A DNA stretch of 64,000 nucleotides from a virus: positions 231,362 through 295,361 of IMG/VR virus record IMGVR_UViG_3300043418_000072; one strand, given 5' to 3'. Both the position numbers and the translations under genes were made by a program. Shown here piece by piece: positions 48,304-63,917 of this stretch (positions within the stretch are counted from its first letter, which is position 1; each line of letters starts with the position of its first letter). The notes under the pieces are model-generated. The model was not told the DNA's origin and made no database searches. It saw only the letters and a program-made list of their open reading frames with translations.

Positions 48304-48777
48304 TTATTCTTCAATTTGTGTAACTGTTATGCCCGAACTCCTTAGGAATTGGACTCCTGCATCATCGCGATAGTTTGCACCATAAAATACACGACGAATG
48401 CCTGACTGAAAAATGAGCTTGGCACAGTGGATACAAGGACTGTGAGTAACAAATAAGTCAGCCCCGTTGCCAACGTTAGGAGACTTCGCCAGTTTTGCAA
48501 TAGCGTTTGATTCAGCATGTAATACCTCAGGTCGTGTTACTAATCTAGTTGTATCTTCTTCAATGGCATAGGTTTGTTTGTTAACAACCTTGGGATGTTC
48601 TTCACAGTTGTTATCCCATCCCGCCGGCATGCCATTGTATCCGTAAATAACCACATCGTCTTTGACAATAACTGCCCCTACCTTGAGCCTACGTGCATGA
48701 CTTAGTTCAGCTGCACGATGTGCCCAGTCCATATATAGTTGTTGATATTTTGTTTTCATAAATGGCAAACCCCGCAC
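48304..48777 (-). CDS. dCMP deaminase
   Basis: 157 aa; zinc-binding HAESNAI...PCIHCAKLI matches the CMP/dCMP deaminase H(A/C)E...PCxxC signature. Confidence 0.8.
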   Translation of the reverse strand: MRGLPFMKTKYQQLYMDWAHRAAELSHARRLKVGAVIVKDDVVIYGYNGMPAGWDNNCEEHPKVVNKQTYAIEEDTTRLVTRPEVLHAESNAIAKLAKSPNVGNGADLFVTHSPCIHCAKLIFQSGIRRVFYGANYRDDAGVQFLRSSGITVTQIEE

Positions 48778-48794
48778 AAGGCGGGGTAATGTTA

Positions 48795-48868
48795 TGGAGC
48801 GGGATAGCGGAATCGAACCGCTGACTTGAACTTGGAAGGATCTCGTTTTACCATTAAACTAATCCCGC
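48795..48868 (-). tRNA. tRNA-Gly (anticodon TCC, tentative)
   Basis: Hand-folded: acceptor GCGGGAT/ATCCCGC, T-arm AGCGG-TTCGATT-CCGCT, CCA encoded, anticodon loop CTTCCAA; the anticodon stem has 2 mismatches; overall similar to T4-type tRNA-Gly. Confidence 0.55.
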
Positions 48869-48876
48869 ATTTCCTT

Positions 48877-48951
48877 TGGTACCTTGTGACGGTTTCGAAC
48901 CGCCGACCCTCTCCGTGTAAAGGAGACGCTCTACCCCTGAGCTAACAAGGC
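48877..48951 (-). tRNA. tRNA-Val (TAC)
   Basis: Acceptor GCCTTGT/ACAAGGT, D-arm TAGCTCAGGGGTAGAGC, anticodon stem TCTCC/GGAGA with loop TTTACAC, T-loop TTCGAAA, CCA encoded. Confidence 0.7.
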
Positions 48952-48957
48952 ATGTAT

Positions 48958-49032
48958 TGGTTGCAAAGGCCGGAATCGAACCAACTGTCTCCAGGTTATG
49001 AGCCTGGTGAGATACCATTTCTCTACTCTGCT
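48958..49032 (-). tRNA. tRNA-Met or tRNA-Ile2 (anticodon CAT)
   Basis: Anticodon stem CCAGG/CCTGG with loop CTCATAA, D stem GAGA/TCTC, T-loop TTCGATT, CCA encoded; the 1:72 pair is mismatched, which is initiator-like. Confidence 0.6.
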
Positions 49033-49039
49033 TCAATAT

Positions 49040-49606
49040 TTATACCAGTTGCTCTGCTTGTAGCAAAGAAACTGTGTCTGCATCCAACTCAATTGATGTC
49101 TGAACATTGAGTTCCAACACCCGATCGTTGATGCTTTGTTTTTGTTTCTTCAGGTCACGCATTTCTGCTTTGTAACCTTCAATCTGGCCTGCTTCAAGCA
49201 CGCCAGTATCAACTGTGTCGTTGTAACCGTAAATGCGGCTATTTTTGTCCTGTGTACGAAGCTTCTCTAGCTTGCCTTCAATGACTTCTGTAGCTTCAAC
49301 TACCTTGCTTTCAGTTAGGCCTTTCAAGAAGCCCAGACGCTTGTCAATGAATGCTGCGTCTGTCAGCAAGTCTGCAACACCAGCTTCTGTGTTGGCGCGA
49401 CCAACCTTTGCACGGATGCCGTACAATGCTCGAGTCAACTGTGTGCGCTTGGCATCATTGCGGACCAGTGCGTCACGTGCTGTAGTCAGCACCGAAGTGG
49501 TGCTTTGGAACTCGTTAAGGGAAACTGTCAATGCGATGTCGATCGTCTTGATGTGTTCCTGGATTGTGTTTTGTAGGGCGTTTGCTTTGCGAAGTGTAAA
49601 TTTCAT
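49040..49606 (-). CDS. hypothetical coiled-coil protein
   Basis: 188-aa ORF. Confidence 0.4.
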   Translation of the reverse strand: MKFTLRKANALQNTIQEHIKTIDIALTVSLNEFQSTTSVLTTARDALVRNDAKRTQLTRALYGIRAKVGRANTEAGVADLLTDAAFIDKRLGFLKGLTESKVVEATEVIEGKLEKLRTQDKNSRIYGYNDTVDTGVLEAGQIEGYKAEMRDLKKQKQSINDRVLELNVQTSIELDADTVSLLQAEQLV

Positions 49607-50408
49607 AATCGAGTTCCTTTCTGTTTGAATTTAATAGGGGGGTAACGTATGGCAAGTCAATTGCGGGACAATGTGCAATGTACATTAGATAGAGTCGATT
49701 TTCAAGGCAACCTTTTTCTAAAGCAAAATACAACAAGCAGAGGATACCAATATTGCCGAGCATCAATAAACAAGCAACTTAATGCCATTTCATCTCGGAG
49801 CACTGGATCACGATTGTATATTCCAGTAAGCGTTTCAAGTGCTAACTAGATGTGCAATCTCTCATCTCCACACGCTACAGCTAGTTTTGAGAAACTAGCA
49901 AAAATGGAGGACGGTGTAGGAGTTTAACCTACCTTATACCGAGTTTGCAATCCGGCGCATAAACGCTCTGCCAACCGTCCATAAATCTTATATGTAAACA
50001 CACTAACACGGCTACCACACCTTACGATGCCCTGTGACCGCACTCCAGGTTAGATAATGTGTTTGCATATAAGTGGAGGACTGAGAATACATCTCTCCCA
50101 ACAACACCTCGGACATTATTACGATCCTTGCGAGACCGCTTTCTTCCGACTTCCACTAAACCCTACTTGCATAGTAGTCTAGTCTGCTGTCAGCATCGCC
50201 GTTTTTAAAGACAGGCAGTAGTCTTGTCGCCATATGCTATTCTACGCTTTCTATCCCGTTGACCTTTAGAGCCATTCACCACCGCTAAGTAGCTACGAAA
50301 CTTCCTGCATAAACAGATTTCACCTTGCGAGTTACGTCTGACTTAGTTAGCTTGCGCCCTAAGTATTAGATGCTTTTCACATATGACCGAGTCAGTCTTT
50401 GCGTTTTG

Positions 50409-50480
50409 TAATGATAGCGGGAATTGAACCCGCCGCATTCTGTTTAAGAGACAGACGTTCTACCAATGAACTATATCAAC
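50409..50480 (-). tRNA. tRNA-Lys (CTT)
   Basis: D stem GTTC/GAAC, anticodon stem TCTGT/ACAGA with loop CTCTTAA, T-arm GCGGG-TTCAATT-CCCGC; one T:T mismatch in the acceptor stem. Confidence 0.5.
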
Positions 50481-50989
50481 CTACTGCGATGTGCTGACTC
50501 AGTTGCTGCATACTCTTTTGGAATACACAATACAACACACCACGTACCTTTTGCCTTGCGAGCTACTCAGTCGTCTTTTGCGACCAATGTTCGTATTACT
50601 ACGTCCACCAACCACTAAAACTGCATACGAGCTCTTAGGTGCAACCCTTCGAACCAATACACTACCCTTTCTCATACCAATTAACAAAGTTGGTTTCGCA
50701 TAGAAGTCAGCACCACCTGTTACTTTCCATCTACTCAAGTTCCCCTTGATGCAATCTCAGGCTTGTAAGCAAACGTTCTTCCCTATGCACTTTGCGTCAC
50801 TGTTACAACCACCCGTCGCTGAGTGATCGCTCCCTCACAGGAGTGAGCAGGCTTGTCTAAACGAACTATTGCTAGCGGAGTTATGTAGGCATACCTCCTT
50901 TGGCTGTGTCACCACAGTTATTCTTCGCATCAAGCTGGGCGAACCATACTCTTTGCAGGACATTAAACTGCCCCAAATTCTTATACAAC

Positions 50990-51065
50990 TGCACACTCAC
51001 AGGATTCGAACCTGCGACCCGGGCAATAGCCCGAGCTATGATCCAACCATATCAGCGTGGCCTAC
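50990..51065 (-). tRNA. tRNA-like element with canonical T-arm (cloverleaf not resolved by hand)
   Basis: GCAGG-TTCGAAT-CCTGT T-arm on the minus strand, but no complementary acceptor stem was found. Confidence 0.25.
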
Positions 51066-51151
51066 GCCTTTATGTGCATGTGTATAAGAACTTCTTATAC
51101 GTATCTATTTTAAAGAACTTGCTTGTTAGCACTATCACTAACTAAGCTGCT

Positions 51152-51180
51152 ATTGTAGCAAACTTTTCATTTGCTGTCAA
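51152..51180 (-). promoter_or_regulatory. sigma70 promoter TTGACA-17-TACAAT inside non-coding stretch
   Basis: Minus strand: TTGACAGCAAATGAAAAGTTTGCTACAAT. Confidence 0.6.
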
Positions 51181-51516
51181 CAGTTATTTAGAAATTTATT
51201 TTGATGCCTCTTTCGCCTGCTTACAAGGCTACGGGTAAGACTTGCGTCTTTTGGTTGACCCTCATGCAACCAGCGGAGCGTTACTCTACTTTATTGCAAT
51301 CCTTCTTCCTGCGTATTGCTACGTGGAATAGATCGTTTCTAACTCATAGGTGTTAGACGCCACTGTAGTCTCTTACAAACTACACAAGAGTGCCCAGCTT
51401 TCTTTCTGGACCAAATTTTCAACAAGACTCACGCAACCTAATAGCGTGGTAGGCCTGTTTACTTTACATCAAAACAAATTTTTAAAGAACGTTTGTTAAT
51501 TGCTTAACATGTATCT

Positions 51517-51545
51517 ATTATAACAAGAGTTTCATTAAGTGTCAA
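51517..51545 (-). promoter_or_regulatory. Consensus sigma70 promoter TTGACA-17-TATAAT firing into ORF-free region
   Basis: Minus strand: TTGACACTTAATGAAACTCTTGTTATAAT followed by the conserved AGATACAT motif. Confidence 0.7.
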
Positions 51546-51574
51546 GTACTTTTAGAAAAACTTAAAATAATAAA

Positions 51575-51658
51575 TGGTGCGTAAGGAGAGACTCGAACTC
51601 TCAATCCTCGCGGCGCTGGCTTCTAAGACCAGAGTGTATACCATTCCACCACTTACGC
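51575..51658 (-). tRNA. tRNA-Leu (TAG), long variable arm
   Basis: Acceptor GCGTAAG/CTTACGC, anticodon stem CTGGT/GCCAG with loop CTTAGAA, 13-nt variable arm, T-arm GAGAG-TTCGAGT-CTCTC, CCA encoded. Confidence 0.65.
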
Positions 51659-51669
51659 ATTGTGATAAA

Positions 51670-52845
51670 TTACTTATCATCTAAGCTGTTATTATAAACA
51701 AATTTGACTTGCTTGTCAACTATGTGTTTATCCATAATAGCTTCAAAATCTTTTGGGTCTTGTGCTTTTGGGGCACAGTAACCGCATATACATCTTGTTC
51801 TAGCACATTGTATAACAGGCATGGCTTTGTTGTCAATGTTTTTCTGCACTTGTTCTAGTATAAGATTACCATTTGACAAATTACCAATTGGACCAACTGT
51901 GCCGTTAAAGCGCATACGGCAATCCTTGTTTGTGTACACATCGCCATTGATCTGTTTAATGTACAAGAAGTACCAATTAACACTACAACTCCATCCCATG
52001 AAATCTGCATGTGGCACAAAGGCTGTTGGGTGTTGTAAGTCTTGGTTAGTGCATAGCTTTCGACCACCACAACAACCACGACCTACCTTACCCATGCCAA
52101 CTGTGTCTGTTGACACTGCATCTAATGCCTTTGTTAGCGCATCTCTACTCTTAGCAGGGGTACGCGACTTGTAGTAATCTTGAAAGTAAATAAACTGTTC
52201 TTTGTTATATTGCCACTGTGGTGTAGGAGTGTCGTTTGCTTTAACTACATAGTCAACACTGTGTGTCTTGCAAAACTCGATAGCTTGTTGGCTAATATCC
52301 CACAAAACAGGATCGTTGTGCATCACAAACACCACCTTTTGGCGCCTGCCGATGGCCTTATTATAAAGTATGTTGTCTAGTACTTGCTGTCTCTGTTTAG
52401 GCAATGCACTGCTGTGAAAACTAACTGTAAACTCATCAATTAAGTTTGCAACCTTTTCCCAAAGATTCTTGCCAGCCACTGCATTACTTGTGCATGTAAC
52501 AGTTAATGGCCATTCGTATGTGTGTCTTGCACGAACCTGTTCAAGGATCTCAACAATGTCTGGATGAAAGATGCTTTCGCCGCCGTAGACATTAAGAACA
52601 ACCATGCGCTGCCATTTAGGCTTTAGCTGCATGTACTTGTCTGCATAAGCAAACATGAAGTCAATGGTCTTTAAGCATTCGTCTTTAGGAGGATGCGCTG
52701 TGCTATTGTCGTGGCCACCATACTCAATGCCAGTTGAGCAGTAGTCGCAATCCAAATTGCACTTCATTGTCAATTCCCAGTCCAACAAAAATGTGGGACG
52801 GTTAACTGGATCGATTGCAGGCTCAATTGAGATAATTTTATTCAT
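51670..52845 (-). CDS. Radical SAM enzyme with C-terminal Cys-rich (SPASM/twitch-like) region
   Basis: 391 aa; CNLDCDYC is the CxxxCxxC radical-SAM cluster motif, and there are about 10 further Cys in the C-terminal half (CCGGRKLC, CICGYC). Confidence 0.7.
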   Translation of the reverse strand: MNKIISIEPAIDPVNRPTFLLDWELTMKCNLDCDYCSTGIEYGGHDNSTAHPPKDECLKTIDFMFAYADKYMQLKPKWQRMVVLNVYGGESIFHPDIVEILEQVRARHTYEWPLTVTCTSNAVAGKNLWEKVANLIDEFTVSFHSSALPKQRQQVLDNILYNKAIGRRQKVVFVMHNDPVLWDISQQAIEFCKTHSVDYVVKANDTPTPQWQYNKEQFIYFQDYYKSRTPAKSRDALTKALDAVSTDTVGMGKVGRGCCGGRKLCTNQDLQHPTAFVPHADFMGWSCSVNWYFLYIKQINGDVYTNKDCRMRFNGTVGPIGNLSNGNLILEQVQKNIDNKAMPVIQCARTRCICGYCAPKAQDPKDFEAIMDKHIVDKQVKFVYNNSLDDK

Positions 52846-53473
52846 AAGTTAATACCAAATGATCTGCAAACCAATCTCTGCAATAGGCAAAGGGTTTACC
52901 AAATCTAAGGTTAAACCAAATTCGTTCGTTTGTATTTGAGATGCTGTGTAGTTGTTGGATATCAAGGATCCATCCTGTGTCTTTTACACTACGATAGGAT
53001 TCGCAGATGTCTGCGTTTCTTGCGTAGGTAGTGCTGTCACAATCAGCGAAGAAATAATTAAACCCAGTTTGCTGACTTTCGTGATCCTTATGCTCTGCAC
53101 CATCGCCTACCATGTAGTTAATGCTAGCAAAAGTAGGACCAAGCTCTGCAAGATCATCTAGCATCATTGGCAAAAAGCGCATGGTAGATTCAATTAGCTT
53201 GCCTGTTACTGAATACCATTCTGCACTACCATTAGTAATGTGACTAACTGTGCCCGATGATCCTAGCTCATAGTGATATCCGTAATCACTGTATTTGTAT
53301 TCCCTAGTAATACCAGTTGATTGACTCTTTACTAGATCAATGCAGTGCTTTGCCACTTGAGCTGTTTTATCCCAGTTATTAACTATACGCACTGGGGTTT
53401 GAAACGTTAATGTATTCATAAAAGGGTTAGCCATGTAATTCTGTTTTTCAACCGCGGACCACTTGGTCCCCAT
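52838..53473 (-). CDS. hypothetical protein co-transcribed with radical SAM gene
   Basis: 211 aa; its start overlaps the radical-SAM stop; an internal Met start (MANPF) is possible. Confidence 0.4.
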   Translation of the reverse strand: MGTKWSAVEKQNYMANPFMNTLTFQTPVRIVNNWDKTAQVAKHCIDLVKSQSTGITREYKYSDYGYHYELGSSGTVSHITNGSAEWYSVTGKLIESTMRFLPMMLDDLAELGPTFASINYMVGDGAEHKDHESQQTGFNYFFADCDSTTYARNADICESYRSVKDTGWILDIQQLHSISNTNERIWFNLRFGKPFAYCRDWFADHLVLTYE

Positions 53474-53700
53474 TGATCAGATGGGCAACCATGATCTAGA
53501 TCAAGCAGCATCTTGCGAATGCCTACCTAGACCACACGTTGTGGGCTCGAAACGGTTCTCAATTTTAAAATCGTTTTGTTGCCTCGGGGGTTCCCGATAC
53601 TTAAACACAGGCCACTAATTGCAAGATTATTGATACTACGCCTACCACTGGTAACAGAAAGCTGCCCTGCTCATGGCTAACTCTTTTATGAACAGTTTGT

Positions 53701-53729
53701 ATTATACAGACTGCTAGTAGATAAGTCAA
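53701..53729 (-). promoter_or_regulatory. Consensus sigma70 promoter TTGACT-17-TATAAT with about 220-nt leader before ORF 52838..53473
   Basis: Minus strand: TTGACTTATCTACTAGCAGTCTGTATAAT. Confidence 0.65.
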
Positions 53730-53743
53730 TAAATATTGAACAA

Positions 53744-54646
53744 ATGCTATACGGTTTTTCAAATAATAAATTTTACATTGACATCCCTGCTTGCACACGC
53801 ACGGTGGGCAACATGCGTGAAGAAAGCGATCGCCATGCTCGAGATTTAGCTAGCCAATCCAATAAACTGTTGCTAACCATTAGCTCAGGAATTGACAGCC
53901 AAAGTGTGTTACATAGTTTTGTTACACAAGGCATACCAATTGAAACTGCATTTATGTACCTTCCCGGATACAATGATCACGAATATCGCAATCTTCAGTT
54001 AGTCGACAAAAAGTACGGAATCAAAACTCGCATTGTAGATCTTGATCCGCTAGCACTTGCTGATGAACTAATTGCCGAAGATGAAGCTACCGGCATCCAT
54101 CGATTCTTTTTGCTTAGTAAACGGTTTATAAGTCTACTACCGGACTCTGCAGATGTAGTGCAAATTATCCACGACCCACAAGTGTTAGTTAACAACGGCG
54201 TTCCGTACTATCACATGGGGCTCCACTATTGCGAAATCGAAAAGCCACGTGCATTTGAATTAGCAAAGCGATCTGGGCGCAACATCTTCTTTGGCGACAC
54301 CACCGAATTCATGTATAGTTTTTTAAACGATCCGGTGTACAGAGCTGTTGCAACGGCTGGCCAATTATACAATGCTAACGGACTATCTAAGCGTATGTTT
54401 AATGTCTATCGCGGAGACAACTGGGACTTTTATGTAAAGCCATTTATCTATGGTCAATACTGGAAGGACGAACTCATGTACTTCCCGAAGTATAACGGAT
54501 CTGAACGTATGCCATTTATTCGTCGACCATTTGATACTGTATCTCATTCGCTAGCAATTCCATTTACAGAACTGCTAGACCATATGGGCAACATCGGGGG
54601 CGGAGTTAAACGTTACGCATCCGACCAACAAAATACGAATGCTTAA
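53744..54646 (+). CDS. PP-loop-like protein, divergent third paralog (plus strand)
   Basis: 300 aa; LLLTISSGIDSQSVLHSF resembles the SGGxDS PP-loop and the downstream IVDLD motif, but is degenerate (SSGIDS). Confidence 0.4.
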   Translation: MLYGFSNNKFYIDIPACTRTVGNMREESDRHARDLASQSNKLLLTISSGIDSQSVLHSFVTQGIPIETAFMYLPGYNDHEYRNLQLVDKKYGIKTRIVDLDPLALADELIAEDEATGIHRFFLLSKRFISLLPDSADVVQIIHDPQVLVNNGVPYYHMGLHYCEIEKPRAFELAKRSGRNIFFGDTTEFMYSFLNDPVYRAVATAGQLYNANGLSKRMFNVYRGDNWDFYVKPFIYGQYWKDELMYFPKYNGSERMPFIRRPFDTVSHSLAIPFTELLDHMGNIGGGVKRYASDQQNTNA

Positions 54647-55754: not shown

Positions 55755-55767
55755 TTATGTACTTATG

Positions 55768-55842
55768 TGGCCGGTCTTGAGAGGATCGAACTCCCACCCT
55801 CTGTTTCGAAGACAGAGATGATATCCATTTCACCAAAGACCG
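55768..55842 (-). tRNA. tRNA-Arg (TCG)
   Basis: Acceptor CGGTCTT/AAGACCG, anticodon stem TCTGT/ACAGA with loop CTTCGAA, T-loop TTCGATC, CCA encoded. Confidence 0.6.
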
Positions 55843-55846
55843 AAAT

Positions 55847-55923
55847 TGGCGACCCCCGAGGGATTCGAACCCCCAACACTCGGATTTGGAATCCGATGTT
55901 CTGCCAATTGGAACTAGAGAGCC
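55847..55923 (-). tRNA. tRNA-Trp (CCA)
   Basis: D stem GTTC/GAAC, anticodon stem TCGGA/TCCGA with loop TTCCAAA, T-arm GGGGG-TTCGAAT-CCCTC; acceptor stem with three G-U pairs; CCA encoded. Confidence 0.6.
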
Positions 55924-55928
55924 ATTTA

Positions 55929-56249: not shown

Positions 56250-56276
56250 GGCTTCATTGCATCGTCCCTTCTGTGT

Positions 56277-56305
56277 ATTATACACTATAGTTATTTATTT
56301 CGCAA
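56277..56305 (-). promoter_or_regulatory. sigma70-type promoter TTGCGA-17-TATAAT driving small ORF plus 4-tRNA cluster
   Basis: Minus strand: TTGCGAAATAAATAACTATAGTGTATAAT. Confidence 0.6.
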
Positions 56306-57499: not shown

Positions 57500-57521
57500 G
57501 TGTGGTTTATAAATATATTAA

Positions 57522-58226: not shown

Positions 58227-59051
58227 TAGGAATTTCCGCTGCTCAACAGTATGCAATGACAGATACTGAATTATAAACTTTTGCACTTCAATATTAGTAG
58301 TTATACCCAGCTGATCAAACAACACACGGCCTTGAGTTTTTATTAAGTCTTGTAGTTTAACCACTATGTCCATTTCGGGAATAACGTCTACCACTTTCTT
58401 ATACACAAGATCTCCGTTATAGATTACACCAGGAGGGCGGTAATCCTCATTATCAAATTTTCCAATATCCAACACTTCCCACATACTGTGCTCAGTTATA
58501 CACTTGTCTTGTATTGCTTGCGGGAGTGAATAAAAATCATCGGCCTTTGTGATCAAGGGCCAATTGGCTTGTTTAATGTTGTTGTACCATATAAGCACTT
58601 GTTCTTCACGATACTCGGGTGTTTGCCAATTTGGGCCGTGGCCGTTTAGCTGCTGACCTGGTTGGAACCAATATGCACGTTTGGTTTTTGTTAAATGCCA
58701 CTGTGTTGCTAGGTCTGTGTATAACAAGATTTTCTTTCCCGGATACTTGGCAAGTATGTTATCCTGCGGTCCAGGTTTTTGCGTTATCGGTATTGGGTTG
58801 CAGAGAAAAAATACTTTACTAACATCAAAACTAGTTGCCCGTGTGCCACTATTATTAGGCCATATTTCGTTGTCTTTCCACGCCGAAACATTTTGTATAT
58901 TCCATTGCGTGGACTTTGTTTTGTGTACGTTGATTGTTCCGTTTTCGAAGCAACACTTATATTGGCCGCTGAGTAGCAACAGGTACAAACAAAAGAATCC
59001 GCCACTACCTCCAAAATAACAAATAGTTACATCAGCTGGCTTCTGCGTCAT
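58212..59051 (-). CDS. hypothetical protein
   Basis: 279 aa; stop/start overlap with the downstream oxidoreductase gene. Confidence 0.4.
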   Translation of the reverse strand: MTQKPADVTICYFGGSGGFFCLYLLLLSGQYKCCFENGTINVHKTKSTQWNIQNVSAWKDNEIWPNNSGTRATSFDVSKVFFLCNPIPITQKPGPQDNILAKYPGKKILLYTDLATQWHLTKTKRAYWFQPGQQLNGHGPNWQTPEYREEQVLIWYNNIKQANWPLITKADDFYSLPQAIQDKCITEHSMWEVLDIGKFDNEDYRPPGVIYNGDLVYKKVVDVIPEMDIVVKLQDLIKTQGRVLFDQLGITTNIEVQKFIIQYLSLHTVEQRKFLLGKL

Positions 59052-59944
59052 CGGGCAACCCCAGTTAACTCTGATACAATAGTTTGTACTGTCTTAATTG
59101 AACTAATGTAATCAATTGCTTTGCCCGCAAATACATGCCCAGCAGTCGGACTCTTGATTCCCAGTTCTAGTCCCATTGTGTGATTACCATCTACGTCAGG
59201 CTCTGAAGAAAATACCAAAGCATTTTGATGAGCTTCGCCAATATTCTTTACTTGATCAAATGACGATTCGATCATTTTCAGTTTGGTTTCAGTTGAAATA
59301 GATGATTCTTCTGATACTGCAAATATTGTTCCCAACCCAACTGCACATGCTCCTGCATCCAAGCAGTCTTGTATATCTTGTGCCGACGTTACGCCGCCCG
59401 ATGCGATAATATTTAGATTGCTGTGGGTCGATTTTAGTTGCTTGATTCTATCCACTAGACTAATTGACACGTCTGCAACACGGGACGCAGCATCTGGTCC
59501 CTTTATATCAATTGCATCAATGTAATTAACTAAGTCCCCAATAGGGCGTGTGCTCAATACTTTGTAGATTATCTTAATTTTATATTTTCTAAAAAGTTTA
59601 ATGATATTTGTTAAACGAATGTTTGTTAAGTCTACATCATCAAACAATTCCAAGTAATTTGGATGGTATTTTAGAATAGCTTCAACCAGCGTTGTATCTT
59701 TTAATAAAAAATCCGATCGCAGTGCAAGAATAAAATCACGAGACCCAGATTGCTCAGTGAATTCTTTCATCTCCGACACAATCTTTGTTACGTCAAGAGT
59801 CAATCGAGACTCAATATAATTGTGTACTACCAGGCTTGGCAGACAGCCTGCGTTGTGAACCGCGAGAGCCAACTTAACGTCGGACACTCTATTCATTGGC
59901 GCACAAATAATAGGATGTGTACAAGATAAAAAATTGTTTTGCAT
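59048..59944 (-). CDS. FMN-dependent TIM-barrel oxidoreductase (nitronate monooxygenase/FabK-like; Dus-like not excluded)
   Basis: 298 aa; the N-terminus ICAPMNRVSDVKLALAVHNAGCLPSL matches the NMO PxxQxPM...AAVSNAGGLG pattern; the C-terminus IIASGGVTSAQDIQDCLDAGACAVGLGTIF matches the FMN phosphate-binding GG...G.A..G.GT.F. Confidence 0.55.
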   Translation of the reverse strand: MQNNFLSCTHPIICAPMNRVSDVKLALAVHNAGCLPSLVVHNYIESRLTLDVTKIVSEMKEFTEQSGSRDFILALRSDFLLKDTTLVEAILKYHPNYLELFDDVDLTNIRLTNIIKLFRKYKIKIIYKVLSTRPIGDLVNYIDAIDIKGPDAASRVADVSISLVDRIKQLKSTHSNLNIIASGGVTSAQDIQDCLDAGACAVGLGTIFAVSEESSISTETKLKMIESSFDQVKNIGEAHQNALVFSSEPDVDGNHTMGLELGIKSPTAGHVFAGKAIDYISSIKTVQTIVSELTGVAR

Positions 59945-59959
59945 CAGATACTTATCTTA

Positions 59960-60033
59960 TGGTGCTCCCACTAAGAATCGAACTTAGGACTGCGCTATAC
60001 CACAGCGCCGATATACCATTTACCTATGAGAGC
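59960..60033 (-). tRNA. tRNA-Thr (GGT)
   Basis: Acceptor GCTCTCA/TGGGAGC, anticodon stem GCGCT/AGCGC with loop GTGGTAT, T-arm CTAAG-TTCGATT-CTTAG, CCA encoded. Confidence 0.55.
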
Positions 60034-60039
60034 AGGTGT

Positions 60040-61248
60040 TTATTTTGTTTGTATAGAGAATACGTCTGTAAACGATTCGCCCCTAATAACATCATACTTC
60101 TTTGTATAGTCAAAGAATGCAGATGGCATATTTGGCGTTAATGTTGATAACGCTTGTTTCACATTTAGTAGCTCAGTAACCAATACTACATAATTTGGTG
60201 CAGTTAGTATTTCAACTGCTTTGTTAATTTGCTCAATTGCCCGGCCCCGCAGTTGATTAGGCAAGTTGTTAAAGTTCATGCCTGGCGGAGAAGTTACGTT
60301 ATAGCACTTCACGCCAATGGTGTTGTTTTCGTTATATAGCCGCATCAGGAACGTTGCTGTTTCTGCAAAATCCATTAAACTATATGCAGATATTGCTGTT
60401 GTAACTTCCATCTTAAACGGCGATTGAAGTTGGTTAAGTCTAAGTACGTTACTTTCAACTTTTGGCCAATCTGTTCCGCTGCGAATATATTCTGCCGATT
60501 TACCCACTGCGTCAATGCTCATTACCATCTGCACTGTTTTAAATTTACTAAGACGGTCAACAAACAATGGGTTATACACACTGCAATTGGTGTATAGCTC
60601 TAGGTTAATTTCTTTGTTGAATCCGTTATCTATTAGATAATCAAGGTAGTCGTAATATTCTTTTATTAAGAATGGTTCCCCACCCGTTAAGCATACTTTC
60701 CATACTGAGGCCAAGAAGGCAGGGTCCTTAAGACCCTCAATAGAATTGCTTTCAATTTTTGTAATAGGTATCACACTGTACTCAATGTGGCTACCTTCTT
60801 TATCTGGTTTAATGTTGTGCTGAATCTTTTCTGCTGCAAAGCTAGAGCTAGATGTTTCATCGCACATTCTGCATTTCATGTTACACAGATTACTAAATCT
60901 AAGTTCAATGCGGCCCGGTACTGTCGGTGTGTCGGCTGTAAATTTATTTGCAAACCATTGATCTTCGTACTCGGGTTCTGGGCCTACATTATAGTAATTC
61001 CAAATTGCGCCGCGTGTGCTTTTTAGCCCCATGTCTTCTTTTGTCTTGCAGCCGCCACATGCAGTTGGGGCAGTGCCACTCAGCATATCTGTCTTCATCT
61101 GCTTGAGCCAATCACTGTTGATATACTCAGCGGGTGTCATGCCAGACTCTAAGTTCTTGATGTAATGACACGGACTAGGAGAGTTGGCGTGATAGTACAT
61201 CATTGTCCACGGTGCTGGGCAAAAGAACTTCTCAGAAAACTTTGCCAT
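60040..61248 (-). CDS. Radical SAM enzyme (second, distinct from 51670..52845)
   Basis: 402 aa; CNMKCRMC is the CxxxCxxC motif, with additional N-terminal Cys (CGGCKTKED). Confidence 0.7.
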   Translation of the reverse strand: MAKFSEKFFCPAPWTMMYYHANSPSPCHYIKNLESGMTPAEYINSDWLKQMKTDMLSGTAPTACGGCKTKEDMGLKSTRGAIWNYYNVGPEPEYEDQWFANKFTADTPTVPGRIELRFSNLCNMKCRMCDETSSSSFAAEKIQHNIKPDKEGSHIEYSVIPITKIESNSIEGLKDPAFLASVWKVCLTGGEPFLIKEYYDYLDYLIDNGFNKEINLELYTNCSVYNPLFVDRLSKFKTVQMVMSIDAVGKSAEYIRSGTDWPKVESNVLRLNQLQSPFKMEVTTAISAYSLMDFAETATFLMRLYNENNTIGVKCYNVTSPPGMNFNNLPNQLRGRAIEQINKAVEILTAPNYVVLVTELLNVKQALSTLTPNMPSAFFDYTKKYDVIRGESFTDVFSIQTK

Positions 61249-61264
61249 TATGGCTCCTGTATTA

Positions 61265-61340
61265 TGGTGCCTCTAACCGGATTCGAACCAGTGACACAAG
61301 GATTTTCAATCCTCTGCTCTACCAACTGAGCTATAAAGGC
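61265..61340 (-). tRNA. tRNA-Phe (GAA)
   Basis: Acceptor GCCTTTA/TAGAGGC, D-arm GCTCAGTTGGTAGAGC, anticodon stem GAGGA/TCCTT with loop TTGAAAA, T-loop TTCGAAT, CCA encoded. Confidence 0.7.
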
Positions 61341-61879
61341 AAATTTAAATGGCATTGTGGGTTCCTACCACACCTGAACCTTGTTCCACCGCTCGTTCAA
61401 AGACTTATGTGGCGATCCCGTGCATTCGCATTACACCATACCATATAGAAGCACTCTCAAATGCAGGCATAGGAGGAGTCAAGCTCTGAAACTTTCGCAT
61501 CTGCAGATACTAGGCTTCTTCTCCCGCTTTGACTTATGCCAAGAATACTTCTATATAGGCTCCACCGTTAACGACAGCATTCGTCCTGGCTTTATTTTAT
61601 GTCGGTTAATGCACGGTGGACACACATGCCGACGGGGTTACAGTTTCAATGATGGGATTCGAACCCACTAACTACCCGTGCGCTGCGGGTTGTGCTACGC
61701 TCAATATAAAACTGGTTTACTCTGTTTCGAACCAGACCAACAGTATATCTTTGCACTATCTTTCCATGTCGTCTTCATTGTTACCATATAGAAACACACT
61801 ATGTGGAATCGAACCACTGACCCTTTCACTCCGTAGAGACCGTGCAATACGCTTAGTCGCCGACTAGTATGTTTTTATA

Positions 61880-61957
61880 TGGTAGAAGCACTGGGGCTCG
61901 AACCCAGGACCCTCGGATTAAAAGTCCGATGCTCTAAACCAACTGAGCTATACTTCC
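61880..61957 (-). tRNA. tRNA-Lys (TTT)
   Basis: Acceptor GGAAGTA/TGCTTCT, anticodon stem TCGGA/TCCGA with loop CTTTTAA, T-arm CTGGG-TTCGAGC-CCCAG, CCA encoded. Confidence 0.6.
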
Positions 61958-61976
61958 ATGACCTTACCATATCAAA

Positions 61977-62083
61977 GTACGCTACGGAATCGAACCGCAG
62001 TCGTCAACCTTTCCCTCCAGGGCAATTGATACAATTATAGCTTCCACAGGAGCGACCTGATTCACTATAATGCACTAGCGTAC
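61977..62083 (-). tRNA. tRNA-like gene with about 30-nt extra insertion (possible intron-containing or aberrant tRNA)
   Basis: Perfect 7-bp acceptor AGTACGC/GCGTACT and T-arm TGCGG-TTCGATT-CCGTA, but the arms are 107 nt apart and no standard D/anticodon arms could be folded by hand. Confidence 0.3.
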
Positions 62084-62090
62084 TTTGATA

Positions 62091-62165
62091 TGGTAGGGGC
62101 ACAGAGAATCGAACTCTGGTTCTCTGGTTAAAAGCCAGATACTTTAGCCGCTAAGTTATACCCCC
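62091..62165 (-). tRNA. tRNA-Lys (TTT), second copy with different body
   Basis: Acceptor GGGGGTA/TGCCCCT, D stem ACTT/AAGT, anticodon stem TCTGG/CCAGA with loop CTTTTAA, T-arm CAGAG-TTCGATT-CTCTG, CCA encoded. Confidence 0.55.
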
Positions 62166-62168
62166 ATA

Positions 62169-62243
62169 TGGTCCACAGCCAGAGAATCGAACTCTGTTAG
62201 CCCGGGTAAGAGCCGGGTACTTCGCCAGCAAAGTTTGCTGTGG
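62169..62243 (-). tRNA. tRNA (anticodon CTT, Lys) with A8-A9
   Basis: Acceptor CCACAGC/GCTGTGG, anticodon stem CCCGG/CCGGG with loop CTCTTAC, T-arm CAGAG-TTCGATT-CTCTG, CCA encoded. Confidence 0.5.
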
Positions 62244-62345
62244 ATGGATTCGTAAATTACTTTTCTTTTACGTGCCATCCAGGACCATACGGGGGTCTAG
62301 GATGACACTATCGTTTACCTGAACGTTTCATGACATTTTTCCTTT

Positions 62346-62735
62346 TTAATTCCAAAGTAAGTCAAAGTTGCCAGCTAACACTTTCTTAACGCTTGCAGTC
62401 TTGTCACTTACGTGATCTTTAACTGTATCGTCTTGAAAGCGGTATGTGCGAATTTTGTCTCCTCGCATCCCTGAACCAACTTGTTGCTTTCTGTTGCTTG
62501 CTAAGTTGTTATTATAACAGTCTTTTGTTATCTTGTCAACTCTTTCTCTAATAGTTTGCATGGCTTCTGCCAAACTATTTTCCCTACTGCGGCACTGTGC
62601 TGTTACTACTGTGCCGCTAGGTACGTGCGTAACACGGGCACTGTTTTGGTGCTTGTTACGGTGTTGTCCTCCTGCGCCTGTTCCGCTGTACCATTCAATC
62701 TTCAGATCTGAGTCAAGAATAGCAGTGGTCGGCAC
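62346..62735 (-). CDS. GGQ-motif peptide-chain-release-factor-like protein (ArfB/PrfH-like peptidyl-tRNA hydrolase domain)
   Basis: 129 aa; YSGTGAGGQHRNKHQNSARVTHVPSGTVV contains the universal GGQ motif in RF domain-3 context; the C-terminus GSGMRGDKIRTYRFQDDTVKDH parallels the RF1/RF2 RSEKIRTYNFPQxRVTDHR segment. Confidence 0.75.
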   Translation of the reverse strand: MPTTAILDSDLKIEWYSGTGAGGQHRNKHQNSARVTHVPSGTVVTAQCRSRENSLAEAMQTIRERVDKITKDCYNNNLASNRKQQVGSGMRGDKIRTYRFQDDTVKDHVSDKTASVKKVLAGNFDLLWN

Positions 62736-63000
62736 ACTTGGATCAACGACAGCGACAGTAACGGTACTAGTATGTACTCGTCCTTTTCGCTCAGTTGGTG
62801 GTACACGCTGTATTCGGTGTCCACCTGGCTCGTTGTATAAGCCAGATAAATCAGCACCCTCGACTAAGATATGAACTTCGCCAAGATACTCATTTATCAG
62901 GCGGCTAGTTCAGCCCTTGCTGTGTGCAAATTTAATGTAGGCTTGCGCCAAGTCTTTTACAAATAGTTTACTGTCTTCGCCACCTTCTGCGGCACGGACT

Positions 63001-63342
63001 TCAATTACACGTTTCATATTCATTTTTCTCTTTTAATCGCATAGCTTCTAATCTTGCTTTCAAGAATAGTTCAACTACATCTTTATTTAACTTAGTAAAT
63101 CCTGTCTTGATTAGAAAGAACAATTCGTCTTTTTCTGACTCAAGCCATACCACGTGAGCATCACCTGTATTGCCCACTGCCCCAAGTCCTTCGGGGTTGC
63201 TGAATCTCTGTGCCGCGTTACAAATGAACGCAAACTTTACCCCAAAGTCCCTTGATAGTACTTCTGGACCAGTGGCCTCACCTTGGGCAATCCGGTACAC
63301 ATAGTTGTACTCGTACGGAACGTCAACGTAGACTTTGTGCAT
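63001..63342 (-). CDS. hypothetical protein
   Basis: 113 aa; stop/start overlap with the upstream phosphatase gene. Confidence 0.4.
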   Translation of the reverse strand: MHKVYVDVPYEYNYVYRIAQGEATGPEVLSRDFGVKFAFICNAAQRFSNPEGLGAVGNTGDAHVVWLESEKDELFFLIKTGFTKLNKDVVELFLKARLEAMRLKEKNEYETCN

Positions 63343-63917
63343 TAGATATCACCTTCGTGGCTTGGGGGTAAAATGATACCACCTGCGCTGTATTGGTATG
63401 GTTGACCATTGATTGTTGGCTCTTCGTTCTCATCGTATGTCCATCCCAGATGCTTCATCATGCGATGCTTGACTAGCAAGTTAGGAGCACGAAATGCTTC
63501 AGTGTCATCAAACCCAAGCATGACCCCAACTTCACAAACTGCACCACTGCGGCAAACACCGGCATGGCAGTGAACAATCACGTTCATGCGATTCTCTAGT
63601 GCATGTTGCAACAAACGAACTAGCTCCGCAGCTTGCTCGTGACTGCAACGCATTTCTTCTTCAAGAACGTAGTCCTTTTCCTCTACATCGAGGAACTCAA
63701 ATTGATGAACTTCTCTAAACTTGTAAAGGGGGGTAGGACACTCGCTCCCGCAGTCAACAATTTGAATCAACATAGCGTTATCACCGGGGTTTATGTGAAA
63801 CCCTTTAGTGACATCGCTACGTGCTACGTTTTGGATCCAGGGCATTTTGTTTCCTTGTGTTAAATACAGTATGAGCAAACCCAATCCTGGATTCGATGAA
63901 TTACTTAAACTCGGCAA
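63342..63917 (-). CDS. Cys-based protein tyrosine / dual-specificity phosphatase fold (CX5R)
   Basis: 191 aa; VIVHCHAGVCRSGAV is the HCxxGxxRS P-loop signature of PTP/DSP-fold phosphatases (this includes RNA 5-prime phosphatases). Confidence 0.65.
   Translation of the reverse strand: MPSLSNSSNPGLGLLILYLTQGNKMPWIQNVARSDVTKGFHINPGDNAMLIQIVDCGSECPTPLYKFREVHQFEFLDVEEKDYVLEEEMRCSHEQAAELVRLLQHALENRMNVIVHCHAGVCRSGAVCEVGVMLGFDDTEAFRAPNLLVKHRMMKHLGWTYDENEEPTINGQPYQYSAGGIILPPSHEGDI

Follow-up and report, generated by a model that had tools for sequence, protein, structure and literature searches.

A tRNA island of a jumbo phage combines a GOLLD RNA, a shortened release factor gene with a conserved in-frame UGA and a set of PP-loop and radical-SAM genes

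We analysed a window of 64,000 nucleotides, the whole stretch of DNA under study, from a giant (jumbo) phage genome of ~320 kb whose lineage is known solely from metagenomes. Within it, a 15.6-kb island carries the following features, given with window positions together with one gene from outside the island.

48304–48777, minus strand: dCMP/cytidine deaminase, left edge of the island (PF00383, E 2.3e-23)
48795–49032, minus strand: tRNA-Gly(tcc), tRNA-Val(tac) and tRNA-Met(cat) (ARAGORN; Rfam tRNA 55–63 bits)
49905–49980, minus strand: tRNA-Cys(gca) (ARAGORN and Rfam)
50078–50543, minus strand: conserved 3′ domain of a GOLLD RNA (Rfam RF02032, 196.1 bits, gathering score 150)
50991–51078, minus strand: doubtful 88-nt tRNA-like element, tRNA-Pro(tgg)
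51190–51510, minus strand: candidate structured RNA in noncoding sequence flanked by two consensus promoters
51575–51658, minus strand: tRNA-Leu(tag) (ARAGORN and Rfam), with a perfect sigma-70 promoter upstream (51691–51719)
51670–52845, minus strand: radical-SAM protein of the SPASM/twitch structural group, 391 aa (CNLDCDYC and a C-terminal Cys-rich auxiliary-cluster region)
52838–53473, minus strand: 211-aa protein with no assigned function, overlapping the radical-SAM gene start by 8 nt
53744–54646, plus strand: short PP-loop paralog, 300 aa, SSGIDS (BLASTP to the 382-aa long PP-loop protein, E 5e-5)
54606–55754, minus strand: long PP-loop copy 1, 382 aa, SYSGGSDT
55768–56110, minus strand: tRNA-Arg(tcg), tRNA-Trp(cca), tRNA-Gly(gcc) and tRNA-Ser(gct) (ARAGORN and Rfam)
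56291–57499, minus strand: long PP-loop copy 2, 402 aa, SYSGGSDS (49% identity to copy 1)
57522–58226, plus strand: truncated or degenerate short PP-loop paralog, 234 aa (BLASTP to the 312-aa short form of relative L007, E 3e-19)
58212–59051, minus strand: 279-aa protein with no assigned function
59048–59944, minus strand: NMO/FabK-type FMN TIM-barrel oxidoreductase, 298 aa (PF03060, 53.8 bits)
59960–60033, minus strand: tRNA-Thr(ggt) (ARAGORN and Rfam)
60040–61248, minus strand: radical-SAM protein with an N-terminal twitch domain, 402 aa (NF033640, 275 bits, cut-off 170)
61265–62243, minus strand: tRNA-Phe(gaa) and, beyond a 540-nt noncoding gap, three tRNA-Lys (ttt, ttt, ctt) (ARAGORN and, except for the ctt gene, Rfam)
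62346–63017, minus strand: RF1-type class-I release factor without domain 1, 223 codons
62841–62902, minus strand: hairpin, candidate readthrough stimulator
62910–62912, minus strand: in-frame TGA of the release factor gene, codon 36
63001–63342, minus strand: 113-aa protein with no assigned function, between release factor and phosphatase
63342–63848, minus strand: CX5R dual-specificity/PTP-fold phosphatase (Pfam DSPc 3.3e-7; Tc-R-P 28.6 bits, cut-off 27)
5030–5422, outside the island: IscU scaffold (PF01592, 3e-53)

ARAGORN called 16 tRNA genes, every one of them minus-strand and confined to 48795–62243, with no call in the remaining ~50 kb of the window, bearing out the dense tRNA island described in a first-pass annotation. 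Of these, 14 reach the Rfam gathering score and one more matches at E 2e-9. Two calls were made by ARAGORN alone, with no Rfam match at E ≤ 0.1: the tRNA-Pro element, which has no counterpart among the calls for the 90% relative L005, and tRNA-Lys(ctt) at 62169–62243, which does have one.

The GOLLD RNA, absent from the first-pass annotation, matches the model over its full length (positions 1–416 of 416) and encloses a tRNA-Lys(ctt) gene at 50408–50480. Its variable 5′ domain probably reaches upstream towards ~51140, and an 11/12-match promoter lies near this end (51152–51180). GOLLD was likewise found in relatives L005 and L011. The combination of a tRNA array with GOLLD is a known phage arrangement, as GOLLD has been described close to tRNA islands and with tRNAs in its linker (PMC12286853). 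The noncoding stretch at 51190–51510, beside a perfect TTGACA-17-TATAAT promoter (51517–51545), matched no family in an Rfam search and folds with a minimum free energy of −93.3 kcal/mol (z −3.5, equalled by 0 of 100 shuffles). A further perfect promoter lies upstream of the tRNA-Lys cluster (62511–62539), and tRNA and ncRNA units sit directly downstream of consensus promoters. Differences from L005 consist of whole-gene insertions and deletions between tRNAs: 53729–55768 and 57499–58219, including the degenerate short PP-loop gene, are missing from L005, while a 332-aa gene of L005 is missing from the window.

Most protein families named in the first pass were recovered, among them the dCMP deaminase at the left edge, IscU, the PTP-fold phosphatase (active-site motif HCHAGVCRSG) and two different CxxxCxxC radical-SAM enzymes. 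One of these, at 51670–52845, scores slightly below the PF04055 cut-off (25.6 bits) and has a predicted fold that is clearly radical SAM; the other, at 60040–61248, also matches PF04055 (33.4 bits). All three proposed PP-loop paralogs, including the distant plus-strand member at 53744–54646, were found again, and the degenerate fourth one had been missed. For the FMN barrel, described as NMO/Dus-like, the NMO assignment holds (FabK 2.7e-13 over residues 4–228), whereas Dus stays under its cut-off (17.1 against 20.4 bits). Searches of Pfam and NCBIfam with the radical-SAM, PP-loop and FMN proteins gave no above-threshold match to QueC, TilS, MnmA, TtcA, ThiI, QueE, MiaB, TYW1 or Dus, and none to any family for the 211-aa protein. 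In fold searches, the PP-loop and radical-SAM proteins came nearest to AsnB/β-lactam synthetase and BlsE/SkfB/anSME/MoaA; tRNA enzymes ranked well below, and neither QueC, TilS and MnmA nor QueE, MiaB and TYW1 were among the closest.

Long PP-loop copy 2 belongs to a large unannotated family on viral and metagenome contigs. The conserved partners of the long PP-loop protein are the short PP-loop paralog, present in 51 of 82 long-PP-loop loci at a median of 47 nt, and TctC/Bug binding proteins with signal peptides; an NMO-type oxidoreductase accompanies it in 31 of the 82. The short paralog at 53744–54646 is 32–40% identical to the 305–312-aa neighbours in L001, L002 and L007. One relative (L296) carries the gene run porin–TctA–binding protein–PP-loop, and PP-loop genes elsewhere are flanked by genes for TctC, fatty-acid desaturase and fatty-acid hydroxylase. 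The window's own cassette contains no TctC homolog; its 279-aa protein occupies the corresponding slot with no detectable similarity to the binding proteins. The pair of 211-aa and radical-SAM genes is kept in L005/L006 and was seen again in L030.

The most unusual part of the island is the shortened release factor gene with its strictly conserved UGA. The free-standing GGQ domain reported earlier at 62346–62735 is in fact the 3′ part of a 223-codon reading frame that matches NCBIfam prfA (1.9e-56, model positions 115–342) and RF1 structures in the PDB (1e-40). It carries PPT (PxT) and GGQ motifs, and retention of the stop-codon recognition domain contradicts in detail the earlier reading as a peptidyl-tRNA hydrolase, which would be ArfB-like. 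Codon 36 is TGA in 80 of 80 and 72 of 72, together 152 of 152, viral relatives at 61–97% identity, in two sets that overlap in source contigs. Exactly one in-frame stop was present in each gene of the first set and in all 13 listed of the second. The same TGA occurs in cellular relatives from Gemmobacter (Gemmobacter caeni), Sphingomonas and Sphingobium at 48–52% identity. It aligns with the Trp codon position of Thermotoga maritima and Escherichia coli RF1; at this position two full-length RF1 genes read TGG. Constraint acts at the protein level both before and after the TGA, as the first two codon positions are conserved and the third varies freely. TGA also serves as an ordinary stop, ending 17 of the window's 64 ORFs of ≥100 aa, and under translation table 4 most confident TGA-ending genes lengthen by <10 codons. 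U never follows the TGA directly among the 93 contexts listed.

The hairpin starts 7 nt 3′ of the TGA and folds at −27 kcal/mol (z −3.9, equalled by 0 of 200 shuffles). Its outer stem is 94.3% paired over 44 sequences with 12 double-sided changes, a level matched by 0 of 500 shuffles; these controls leave in place any effect of relatedness among the sequences. Third-position entropy is lowered at codons 37–46 and 54–59, and two diverged release factor clades each retain a stem at this site despite sequence differences.

The phosphatase, 64–71% identical across lineages, is present in 73 of 80 release factor loci, always on the same strand and at a median gap of 665 nt. Its likely start codon, the ATG at 63848, yields the N-terminus MPWIQNV shared with relatives, and the longer ORF (63342–63917) beginning with TTG at 63917 is probably over-extended. 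The intervening 113-aa protein is not conserved with this pair (10 of 80 loci). A tRNA lies within 3 kb of 69% and within 5 kb of 83% of release factor loci, and the Gemmobacter copy sits amid 8 tRNAs. The joint recurrence in relatives of tRNA array, GOLLD and release factor, with the linked phosphatase, supports a translation-related unit. The functional translation unit proposed in the first pass therefore survives for these members, while tRNA modification by the radical-SAM, PP-loop and FMN genes is not supported.

The region is a patchwork of unrelated cassettes, and a single tRNA-modifying machine is not favoured. On balance, we consider it probable that the island is a plastic, accessory mosaic of at least three independent cassettes placed between separately promoted tRNA clusters: tRNAs with GOLLD, a release factor gene putatively expressed by readthrough and linked genetically to that of the CX5R phosphatase, and a metabolic set. 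The last brings together PP-loop ATP pyrophosphatases of both lengths, the NMO-type flavoenzyme and the two radical-SAM enzymes of the SPASM/twitch type. Since TctC/TctA/porin uptake genes accompany this set in relatives, it may activate and transform a small carboxylate or sugar-type metabolite; tRNA is not a likely substrate. We infer that the full-length release factor is obtained solely by in-frame readthrough of its own UGA. The likeliest reader would be near-cognate tRNA-Trp(CCA), restoring the Trp of RF1, with the hairpin assisting. How much factor is made would then depend on how RF2 activity and tRNA-Trp are balanced during infection, making the UGA a readthrough analogue of the frameshift in prfB. 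The parallel to prfB autoregulation would be incomplete, since the PxT-type motif predicts UAA/UAG specificity, so that the UGA would respond to RF2 of the host and not to the phage factor itself.

PP-loop and radical-SAM chemistry serves tRNA modification, and the first-pass annotation had combined these enzymes, the FMN protein and the tRNA genes into one unit modifying the phage's own tRNAs (in a queuosine-, lysidine-, thio- or dihydrouridine-like manner). Besides this chemistry and the IscU gene in the same genome, interleaving with tRNAs speaks for such a unit, as it is seen in the window, in L005/L006, L002 and L007, and in 18 of 79 viral loci. We nevertheless regard it as highly unlikely, given the missing family matches, the fold ranking, the secreted TctC/Bug proteins as tightest neighbours (with TctA and porin at some loci) and the gain and loss of cassettes between near-identical phages. 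Moreover, a tRNA is lacking within 10 kb at 46 of the 79 viral loci, and only 16% of long-PP-loop loci have one within 3 kb. The genes are scattered independently in relatives, a pattern that the first-pass annotation had itself named as speaking against its proposal. Alternatively, the PP-loop, radical-SAM and NMO genes could act with the nucleotide-sugar genes to their left (42.7–48 kb) to make or modify a compound of the sugar or nucleoside type. This could be a uronic or N-acetyl sugar, amidated or decarboxylated, for a glycan on the virion or cell surface, or else a modified nucleotide of the DNA. The adjoining genes for an NDP-hexose C-methyltransferase, 2OG oxygenase, epimerase/dehydratase, cytidylyltransferase-cupin and dCMP deaminase fit this idea. 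It appears unlikely nonetheless, as the WbuX match (16 bits) is far under the cut-off of 203, PP-loop flanks in relatives are of the TctC and fatty-acid type, and a Pfam scan of representatives of neighbour clusters 2, 5, 6, 8–11 and 16–18 brought up no sugar genes.

The release factor gene, which the JGI annotation splits into ORFs of 35 and 129 aa, could instead be a decaying pseudogene, or its UGA could be decoded by a suppressor tRNA encoded elsewhere in the genome, as selenocysteine directed by the downstream hairpin, or by termination and re-initiation yielding two polypeptides. Taken together, we judge these options quite improbable. Decay is in practice excluded by the persistence of the TGA at all viral loci examined and in alphaproteobacterial genomes, and by purifying selection on both halves in one frame with no further stops. 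For a suppressor, the tRNA scan covered ±10 kb around loci in related genomes, a fraction of a ~320-kb genome, and anticodon UCA was found in 0 of 1071 tRNAs. Bacterial SECIS elements are hairpins just 3′ of the UGA, a layout that the phage hairpin resembles, but its stem interior of ~40 nt would set it apart from the canonical form. The island tRNA-Trp(cca) has a Watson–Crick U11:A24 pair in its D-stem, and 21 of 22 distinct phage tRNA-Trp sequences are Watson–Crick paired at 11:24; U11:A24 is also natural in some bacteria, e.g. Bacillus subtilis, and is therefore weak evidence for readthrough. The position of the stop at the RF1 Trp codon favours Trp over selenocysteine and argues against a β-sheet domain split between two polypeptides.

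Extending the frame upstream of 62735 changed the reading of what the first-pass annotation had described as a free-standing GGQ domain. The translation (MKRVIEVRAAEGGEDSKLFVKDLAQAYIKFAHSKG*TSRL...GGHRIQRVPPTERKGRVHTS...GAGGQ...) places this domain within a longer ORF of the RF1 type that is interrupted by a single in-frame stop:

62346-63017, minus strand: release-factor ORF of 223 codons, lone TGA at codon 36 (62910-62912)

With the stop masked, the protein matched RF1 models over positions 115-342 (prfA 1.9e-56, prfB 1e-33, PrfH 1e-10) and RF1 structures at 1e-40, the aligned span corresponding to RF1 residues ~112-340. QRVPPTERKGRVHTS and GAGGQH mark a decoding domain with a PxT motif and a GGQ domain as found in RF1 (prfA), and the PxT segment is RF1-like. 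Since the RF1-model match covers only positions 115-342, we conclude that both of these domains are present and that domain 1 is absent. The ORF begins where residue ~110 would lie in RF1, short of the four-domain RF1 architecture, and its TIGR00019 score of 191.6 bits stays below the equivalog score of 423. The masked codon 36 aligns with a Trp of both Thermotoga maritima RF1 (...rkgW) and Escherichia coli RF1 (...arrW).

Short RF homologs with a GGQ domain are known in PrfH, which likewise lacks domain 1, and in ArfB. ArfB, however, has no decoding domain, and a free GGQ rescue factor of this type is ruled out by the decoding domain encoded upstream in the same frame. Identity with PrfH is ruled out by a TIGR03072 score of 41.5 bits against a cut-off of 166.65 and by the conserved neighbour, which is a CX5R phosphatase; no RtcB partner was noticed among the called genes of the loci read. 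Compared with PrfH, the protein is far closer to RF1 (192 bits) and retains the QRVPxTE...GRxHTS decoding segment. The neighbouring orf113 was considered as the missing domain 1 and discarded, as it has no PCRF match and occurs in just 10 of 80 loci. A tblastn search of GenBank phages with the release factor returned only ordinary RF1 genes of <40% identity. Current gene callers split or discard the gene, which leaves it invisible in annotations.

The interrupting TGA is strictly conserved. A relative of the release factor is encoded on 443 IMG/VR contigs, and in the best 80 of these (70-97% amino acid identity) the TGA at codon 36 is always present and always the sole in-frame stop. It was also found in 72/72 sequences of a second relative set that includes clades at 61-67% identity, which gives 152/152 viral loci from two sets with overlapping source contigs. 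Beyond phages, reference genomes show the same codon as TGA in Gemmobacter caeni DSM 21823 (52% identity), where 8 tRNAs form an array around the gene, in MAGs of Sphingomonas, Sphingobium and another alphaproteobacterium (48% identity), and in one Pseudobdellovibrionaceae contig. The Gemmobacter locus (NZ_QBKP01000002.1, 380972-387646) thus holds a domain-1-less, TGA-containing RF1-like gene in a cultured alphaproteobacterium and could provide an experimental system. Two full-length RF1 genes from Phycisphaeraceae MAGs carry TGG instead of the TGA. Further short RF-like genes (GGHRWQRVPPTEKRGRVHTS) occur in myxobacterial genomes (loci L248-L269); these align only from residue ~38 onward and have stops a few codons upstream.

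On either side of the stop, codon-position entropy revealed conserved first and second positions and a variable third position; therefore, both parts are translated in this frame. A conserved in-frame stop combined with two-sided coding constraint across diverged homologs is the pattern expected of programmed readthrough. We reject genome-wide reassignment of TGA (code 4): 17 of the 64 ORFs of ≥100 aa in the window end in TGA, several of them overlapping the next gene by a 4-nt start/stop, and under table 4 most confident TGA-ending genes of the window gain <10 codons. No other gene of the window has homology that continues across an internal TGA, and none of the 1071 tRNAs in all fetched loci is a suppressor with anticodon UCA.

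The context of the stop carries further candidate signals. In the 93 contexts printed, the TGA is followed by A, G or, occasionally, C but in no case by U; a U in this position is reported to lower readthrough (PMC5289835). At codons 37-46 and 54-59 the third-position entropy drops sharply, with ATA, for instance, used in 68 and TTA in 62 of 71 sequences. In the window sequence, a 62-nt hairpin begins 7 nt 3' of the UGA (−27 kcal/mol, z −3.9, equalled by 0/200 shuffles). Its outer stem, GCCuGAUAAAU / AUUUAUCuGGC, is 94.3% paired among 44 distinct sequences, with pairs 37:82 and 38:81 varying among A-U, G-U and G-C. The resulting 12 double-sided changes were reached by 0/500 shuffles, a test that takes no account of relatedness among the sequences. 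By-eye comparison placed a stem of different sequence at the same site in two diverged clades (GUAG...CUAC and CGGGGC...GCCCUG). A conserved 3' RNA structure at a short spacer is likewise characteristic of programmed readthrough. The phage tRNA-Trp(cca) (55847-55923, minus strand) has a D-stem GUUC/GAAC with a U11:A24 pair, and a Watson-Crick 11:24 pair is present in 21 of 22 distinct phage tRNA-Trp genes from related loci. The Hirsh UGA-suppressor mutation in E. coli tRNA-Trp creates the same 11:24 arrangement; because A24 is natural in some bacteria, the pair is only suggestive of readthrough.

The conserved partner of the gene is the CX5R phosphatase (63342-63917), which is co-oriented with it in 73/80 loci at a median gap of 665 nt, in either gene order. 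A tRNA lies within 3 kb of the release-factor gene in 69% and within 5 kb in 83% of loci, and a long PP-loop gene lies nearby in only 2/80. A candidate dual-specificity/PTP-fold phosphatase, it has an HCHAGVCRSG catalytic loop and scores 28.6 against a cut-off of 27 for PF22785 but falls just short for PF00782 (30.6 against 33.5); its best PDB sequence match has an E of 0.04, and tblastn against GenBank phages gave one 34% match.

On this basis it is possible, if still short of probable, that phage and alphaproteobacterial tRNA islands share a domain-1-less RF1 family that is made only by UGA-to-Trp readthrough, a readthrough-type control of a release factor. The 3' hairpin and a near-cognate tRNA-Trp would drive decoding of the in-frame UGA as Trp in the release-factor mRNA, the release-factor level would then report the cell's RF2/tRNA-Trp balance, and the co-inherited CX5R phosphatase would be a second component of a phage system that retunes termination.

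A close known case is the +1 frameshift of prfB (RF2), also a class-I RF gene with an early in-frame UGA, at codon 26 in E. coli (PMC5009743) and codon 36 here. In both, synthesis of the full protein competes with termination at this UGA, as established for prfB and proposed here. However, the downstream ORF here continues in the same frame, which would make the event readthrough rather than frameshifting; the protein is of the RF1 type (PxT) without domain 1; and the candidate stimulator is a 3' hairpin, whereas prfB uses an upstream SD-like element and a CUU slip site. According to a 2016 review, readthrough-type control of a bacterial RF gene had been proposed before prfB was sequenced and was never found, and bacteria were not known to have any RF gene interrupted early by a stop in its own frame (PMC5009743). 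The only related case given in that review is giant-virus eRF1 (PMC5009743; PMC3521657): the Megavirus/Mimivirus gene is expressed via stop-codon readthrough and frameshifting (PMC3521657, cited in PMC5009743). It shares with our proposal a viral termination factor whose own mRNA needs stop readthrough, but is a eukaryotic/archaeal-type factor of an amoeba virus that also requires a frameshift, whereas the gene described here is a bacterial RF1 homolog of phages and alphaproteobacterial islands with a single UGA. Class-I release factors are also borne by the recoded Lak, crAss-like and Jade phages, which carry RF1/RF2, in Jade positioned as a 'code-change module' alongside tRNA genes (Borges et al., bioRxiv 10.1101/2021.08.26.457843). 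Their RF genes, including RF1 of the TGA-recoded Jade phages, are in standard code, and the stop is reassigned genome-wide via a suppressor tRNA; in the window, by contrast, TGA is a normal stop, and no suppressor tRNA was seen in the fetched loci.

Judged from sequence, this release-factor gene, whose same-frame UGA is conserved throughout and is followed by a hairpin, is a candidate novel form of known recoding among termination-factor genes. We found no literature account of an RF gene, from phage or bacterium, that is interrupted by a stop in its own frame; coverage was incomplete, and a prior description may exist. If the readthrough is real, it would be a natural, strictly conserved 0-frame UGA recoding event in a large family of bacterial-type release-factor genes and a complement to the prfB frameshift. 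Its compact signal (UGA, 7-nt spacer, hairpin) would be transferable into reporters, and large phages would be seen to tune termination besides tRNA supply.

The island around this gene had been proposed to form a phage tRNA/translation-modification system. Its tRNA content was borne out: at least 15 tRNA genes had been claimed, and an ARAGORN search of the 64-kb window found 16. They all lie on the minus strand within 48795-62243, and the remainder of the window has none. Rfam listed 14 at gathering score and tRNA-Thr at E 2e-9, and does not list an 88-nt 'tRNA-Pro' (50991-51078) or tRNA-Lys(ctt) (62169-62243). The dCMP deaminase reported at the left edge is present as well (48304-48777, PF00383 2e-23). 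The same region contains a GOLLD RNA that the first-pass annotation had missed, together with other noncoding and promoter-like elements:

Noncoding and promoter-like elements of the tRNA island
50078-50543, probably to ~51140, minus strand: GOLLD RNA, full model (Rfam RF02032, 196.1 bits against a gathering score of 150)
51190-51510, minus strand: noncoding stretch of ~320 nt, 3' of a perfect TTGACA-17-TATAAT promoter; fold z −3.5
62511-62539, minus strand: perfect TTGACA-17-TATAAT ahead of the tRNA-Lys cluster, located in the 3' portion of the release-factor ORF
51691-51719, minus strand: perfect TTGACA-17-TATAAT ahead of tRNA-Leu
51517-51545, minus strand: perfect TTGACA-17-TATAAT
51152-51180, 53701-53729 and 48250-48278, minus strand: 11/12 promoter matches

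A tRNA-Lys(ctt) is embedded in GOLLD, which is preceded by an 11/12 sigma-70 promoter and the 88-nt tRNA-like element, and GOLLD recurs in the related loci L005 (15374-15840) and L011 (4946-5408). Phage tRNA islands are the published context of this RNA, sometimes with a tRNA in the linker, and cryo-EM has resolved it as a 14-mer nanocage (PMC12286853). Being full-length, with a tRNA in the linker and inside a phage tRNA array, the copy here has no substantive difference from the published RNA (RF02032, PMC12286853) and is an ordinary new member. The stretch at 51190-51510 matches no Rfam family; it may represent a structured RNA not yet described, or else belong to a long precursor of GOLLD. 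The placement of the promoter-like sites fits separately transcribed tRNA and ncRNA units; it is only suggestive, because their total is not above shuffle expectation. A further 540-nt gap (61340-61880, minus strand) between tRNA-Phe and the tRNA-Lys cluster has no convincing ORF, and L005 has small insertions there. Among related tRNA islands, L011 contains a group I intron (2748-2940; RF00028, 52.7 bits), and eIF-1A/IF1-like and RNA polymerase Rpb6/omega-like proteins are encoded near tRNAs in L001 (353-574), L005 (1507-1716) and L007 (7770-7979).

The enzymes interleaved with the tRNAs fared differently. Three PP-loop paralogs had been noted, and we confirmed two long proteins (382 and 402 aa, 49% identical) and a distant short paralog (53744-54646, plus strand), along with a fourth, degenerate copy of the short form (57522-58226, plus strand). 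The long family comprises 1633 clusters at 50% identity (E ≤ 1e-3), with SYSGGSDS invariant among 56 sequences. Ten distant members gave no Pfam family above threshold and no domain fusions as clues to function. Neither a scan of 185,579 reference genomes, limited by pattern, nor tblastn in GenBank phages gave any relatives, and neither the protein nor its profile had a significant PDB sequence match. Every significant fold match is a PP-loop enzyme, which, together with the SGGxDS/T motif on a Rossmann-like α/β fold, assigns the protein to the PP-loop ATP pyrophosphatase superfamily:

Fold comparison of the long PP-loop protein
Asparagine synthetase B: 10.4 (263 residues aligned)
β-Lactam synthetase: 10.0
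Human ASNS: 9.3
Carbapenam synthetase: 8.8
TilS and TtuA: 7.9
NcsA: 7.1
ThiI: 6.9
WbuX-like (8wex): 6.3
QueC: 6.1

For the tRNA- or preQ0-pathway PP-loop families QueC, TilS, MnmA, TtcA-TtuA-NcsA and ThiI, neither 54606-55754 nor 56291-57499 has a Pfam/NCBIfam match (PF06508, PF01171, PF03054 and others) at E ≤ 0.01, the lone match at this threshold being WbuX at 16 bits. None of these families is the closest overall fold when substrate-binding domains are included, and the short paralog reached only 17.5 bits for QueC in PADLOC. The AsnB, β-lactam and carbapenam synthetase domains at the head of the comparison are PP-loop carboxylate-adenylating amidoligases. Resemblance to AsnB is limited to the synthetase fold, however, and membership of its family was rejected: PF00733 (Asn_synthase) and GATase are not matched, and the 402-aa protein has ~60 unrelated N-terminal residues. 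The long PP-loop proteins differ from all these synthetases in lacking the N-terminal glutaminase domain, in sequence (7-12% identity), in their novel ~60-residue N-terminal and helical C-terminal domains, and in occurring as a long and short paralog pair.

Both radical-SAM assignments held, with the CxxxCxxC cluster motif on a partial TIM barrel: 60040-61248 matches the 'N-terminal twitch' model NF033640 (275 bits against 170; residues 7-398 on model positions 2-392), and 51670-52845 matches PF04055 weakly. The nucleic-acid enzymes QueE, MiaB, TYW1, RlmN and Elp3 are neither a family HMM match nor the closest fold. The closest known group is that of the SPASM/twitch enzymes BlsE, SkfB, anSME and MoaA, to which identity is <17%, and no equivalog model was matched. 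A defence reading was dropped, as PADLOC gave only generic viperin-like radical-SAM core matches besides the QueC match. The barrel that had been called NMO/Dus-like was retained as NMO and not as Dus:

59048-59944: NMO-type FMN barrel (PF03060, 53.8 bits against 28)

Dus (PF01207) scored 17.1 bits, short of its gathering score of 20.4, in a match confined to residues 165-202, and the PDB sequence matches are NMO, IMPDH and FabK, with Dus absent.

ORFs neighbouring the long PP-loop gene were clustered de novo across 82 loci:

Neighbours of the long PP-loop gene in 82 loci
Short PP-loop paralog: 51 loci, median 47 nt away
TctC/Bug solute-binding proteins: 43 loci, median 2 nt; N-terminal signal peptides; PF03401 7e-13
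NMO: 31 loci
CX5R phosphatase: 23 loci
Fatty-acid desaturase: 22 loci
504-aa radical SAM: 20 loci
N-twitch radical SAM: 17 loci
2OG oxygenase: 16 loci

In these relatives, a TctC/Bug representative scores 49.1 bits against 27 for PF03401, and nearly all 54 members have hydrophobic N-termini. On a 343-kb jumbo-phage contig (L296, 9383-14090), genes for a porin (PF13609), TctA (PF01970), a signal-peptide binding protein and a long PP-loop protein follow one another with overlapping stops and starts, and TctA occurs in 6/79 long-PP-loop loci. No TctC/Bug homolog was detected in the window; a 279-aa protein was considered as a diverged TctC and rejected, having no similarity by BLAST or Pfam. Proximity to tRNAs is not a general feature: 46 of 79 long-PP-loop loci have no tRNA within 10 kb, and only 16% have one within 3 kb. 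Comparison with L005, a relative with 90% identity, revealed that 53729-55768 (the 382-aa long protein and the 300-aa short paralog) and 57499-58219 (the degenerate short copy) are present or absent as blocks beside tRNAs, in flanking DNA that is otherwise 82-95% identical. L005 alone has a 332-aa gene between the radical-SAM gene and tRNA-Thr.

Taken together, the proposal that the PP-loop, radical-SAM and FMN proteins modify tRNA passes none of the available tests (family HMMs, folds, neighbours and tRNA proximity). The first-pass annotation was largely correct in what it observed, the GGQ call and the overlooked GOLLD RNA aside, and half right in its interpretation: of the proposed translation unit, the tRNAs, GOLLD and the release factor with its linked phosphatase stand, and these enzymes drop out as tRNA modifiers. 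Proximity to tRNA genes in jumbo-phage islands is not evidence for a tRNA-modifying function. We infer instead that the PP-loop genes encode ATP-dependent carbonyl/carboxylate activation and that their products work alongside redox and radical enzymes on a small molecule that is imported, the genes having landed in a recombination-prone tRNA island. The main alternative for the substrate of the PP-loop, radical-SAM and NMO enzymes is a sugar or nucleoside, because of the BlsE-like fold, the weak WbuX match and the adjoining NDP-sugar genes. The long PP-loop proteins make up a large enzyme family that lacks annotation altogether and is linked to uptake genes of the TctC/TctA/porin kind on phage genomes. 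This suggests an auxiliary-metabolism theme in which an infecting jumbo phage takes up a specific carboxylate and transforms it. The nucleotide-sugar gene set lies left of the island (42745-48060) and encodes an NDP-hexose C-methyltransferase-like protein (PF08484, PF08421), a 2OG-Fe(II) oxygenase, an NAD-dependent epimerase/dehydratase and a cytidylyltransferase fused to a mannose-6-P-isomerase-type cupin.

Megablast of the whole region against GenBank phages gave only tRNA-sized matches, and there is no characterised relative among them. Hundreds of unannotated long PP-loop homologs lie on metagenome contigs of 140-350 kb, including L005, a 320-kb JGI contig with a 90% identical homolog and the gene order of the window; the window therefore belongs to an uncultured jumbo phage. 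The IscU scaffold noted at 5030-5422 is genuine (IscU/NifU_N, PF01592, 2.6e-53), and a 374-aa ORF without a Pfam match (3964-5088) overlaps it upstream. Elsewhere, the window encodes UvsW- and DnaB-like helicases as well as proteins with Mtd-type tropism-determinant, pectate-lyase-like and LysM domains, suggestive of virion proteins that bind receptors or the cell wall.
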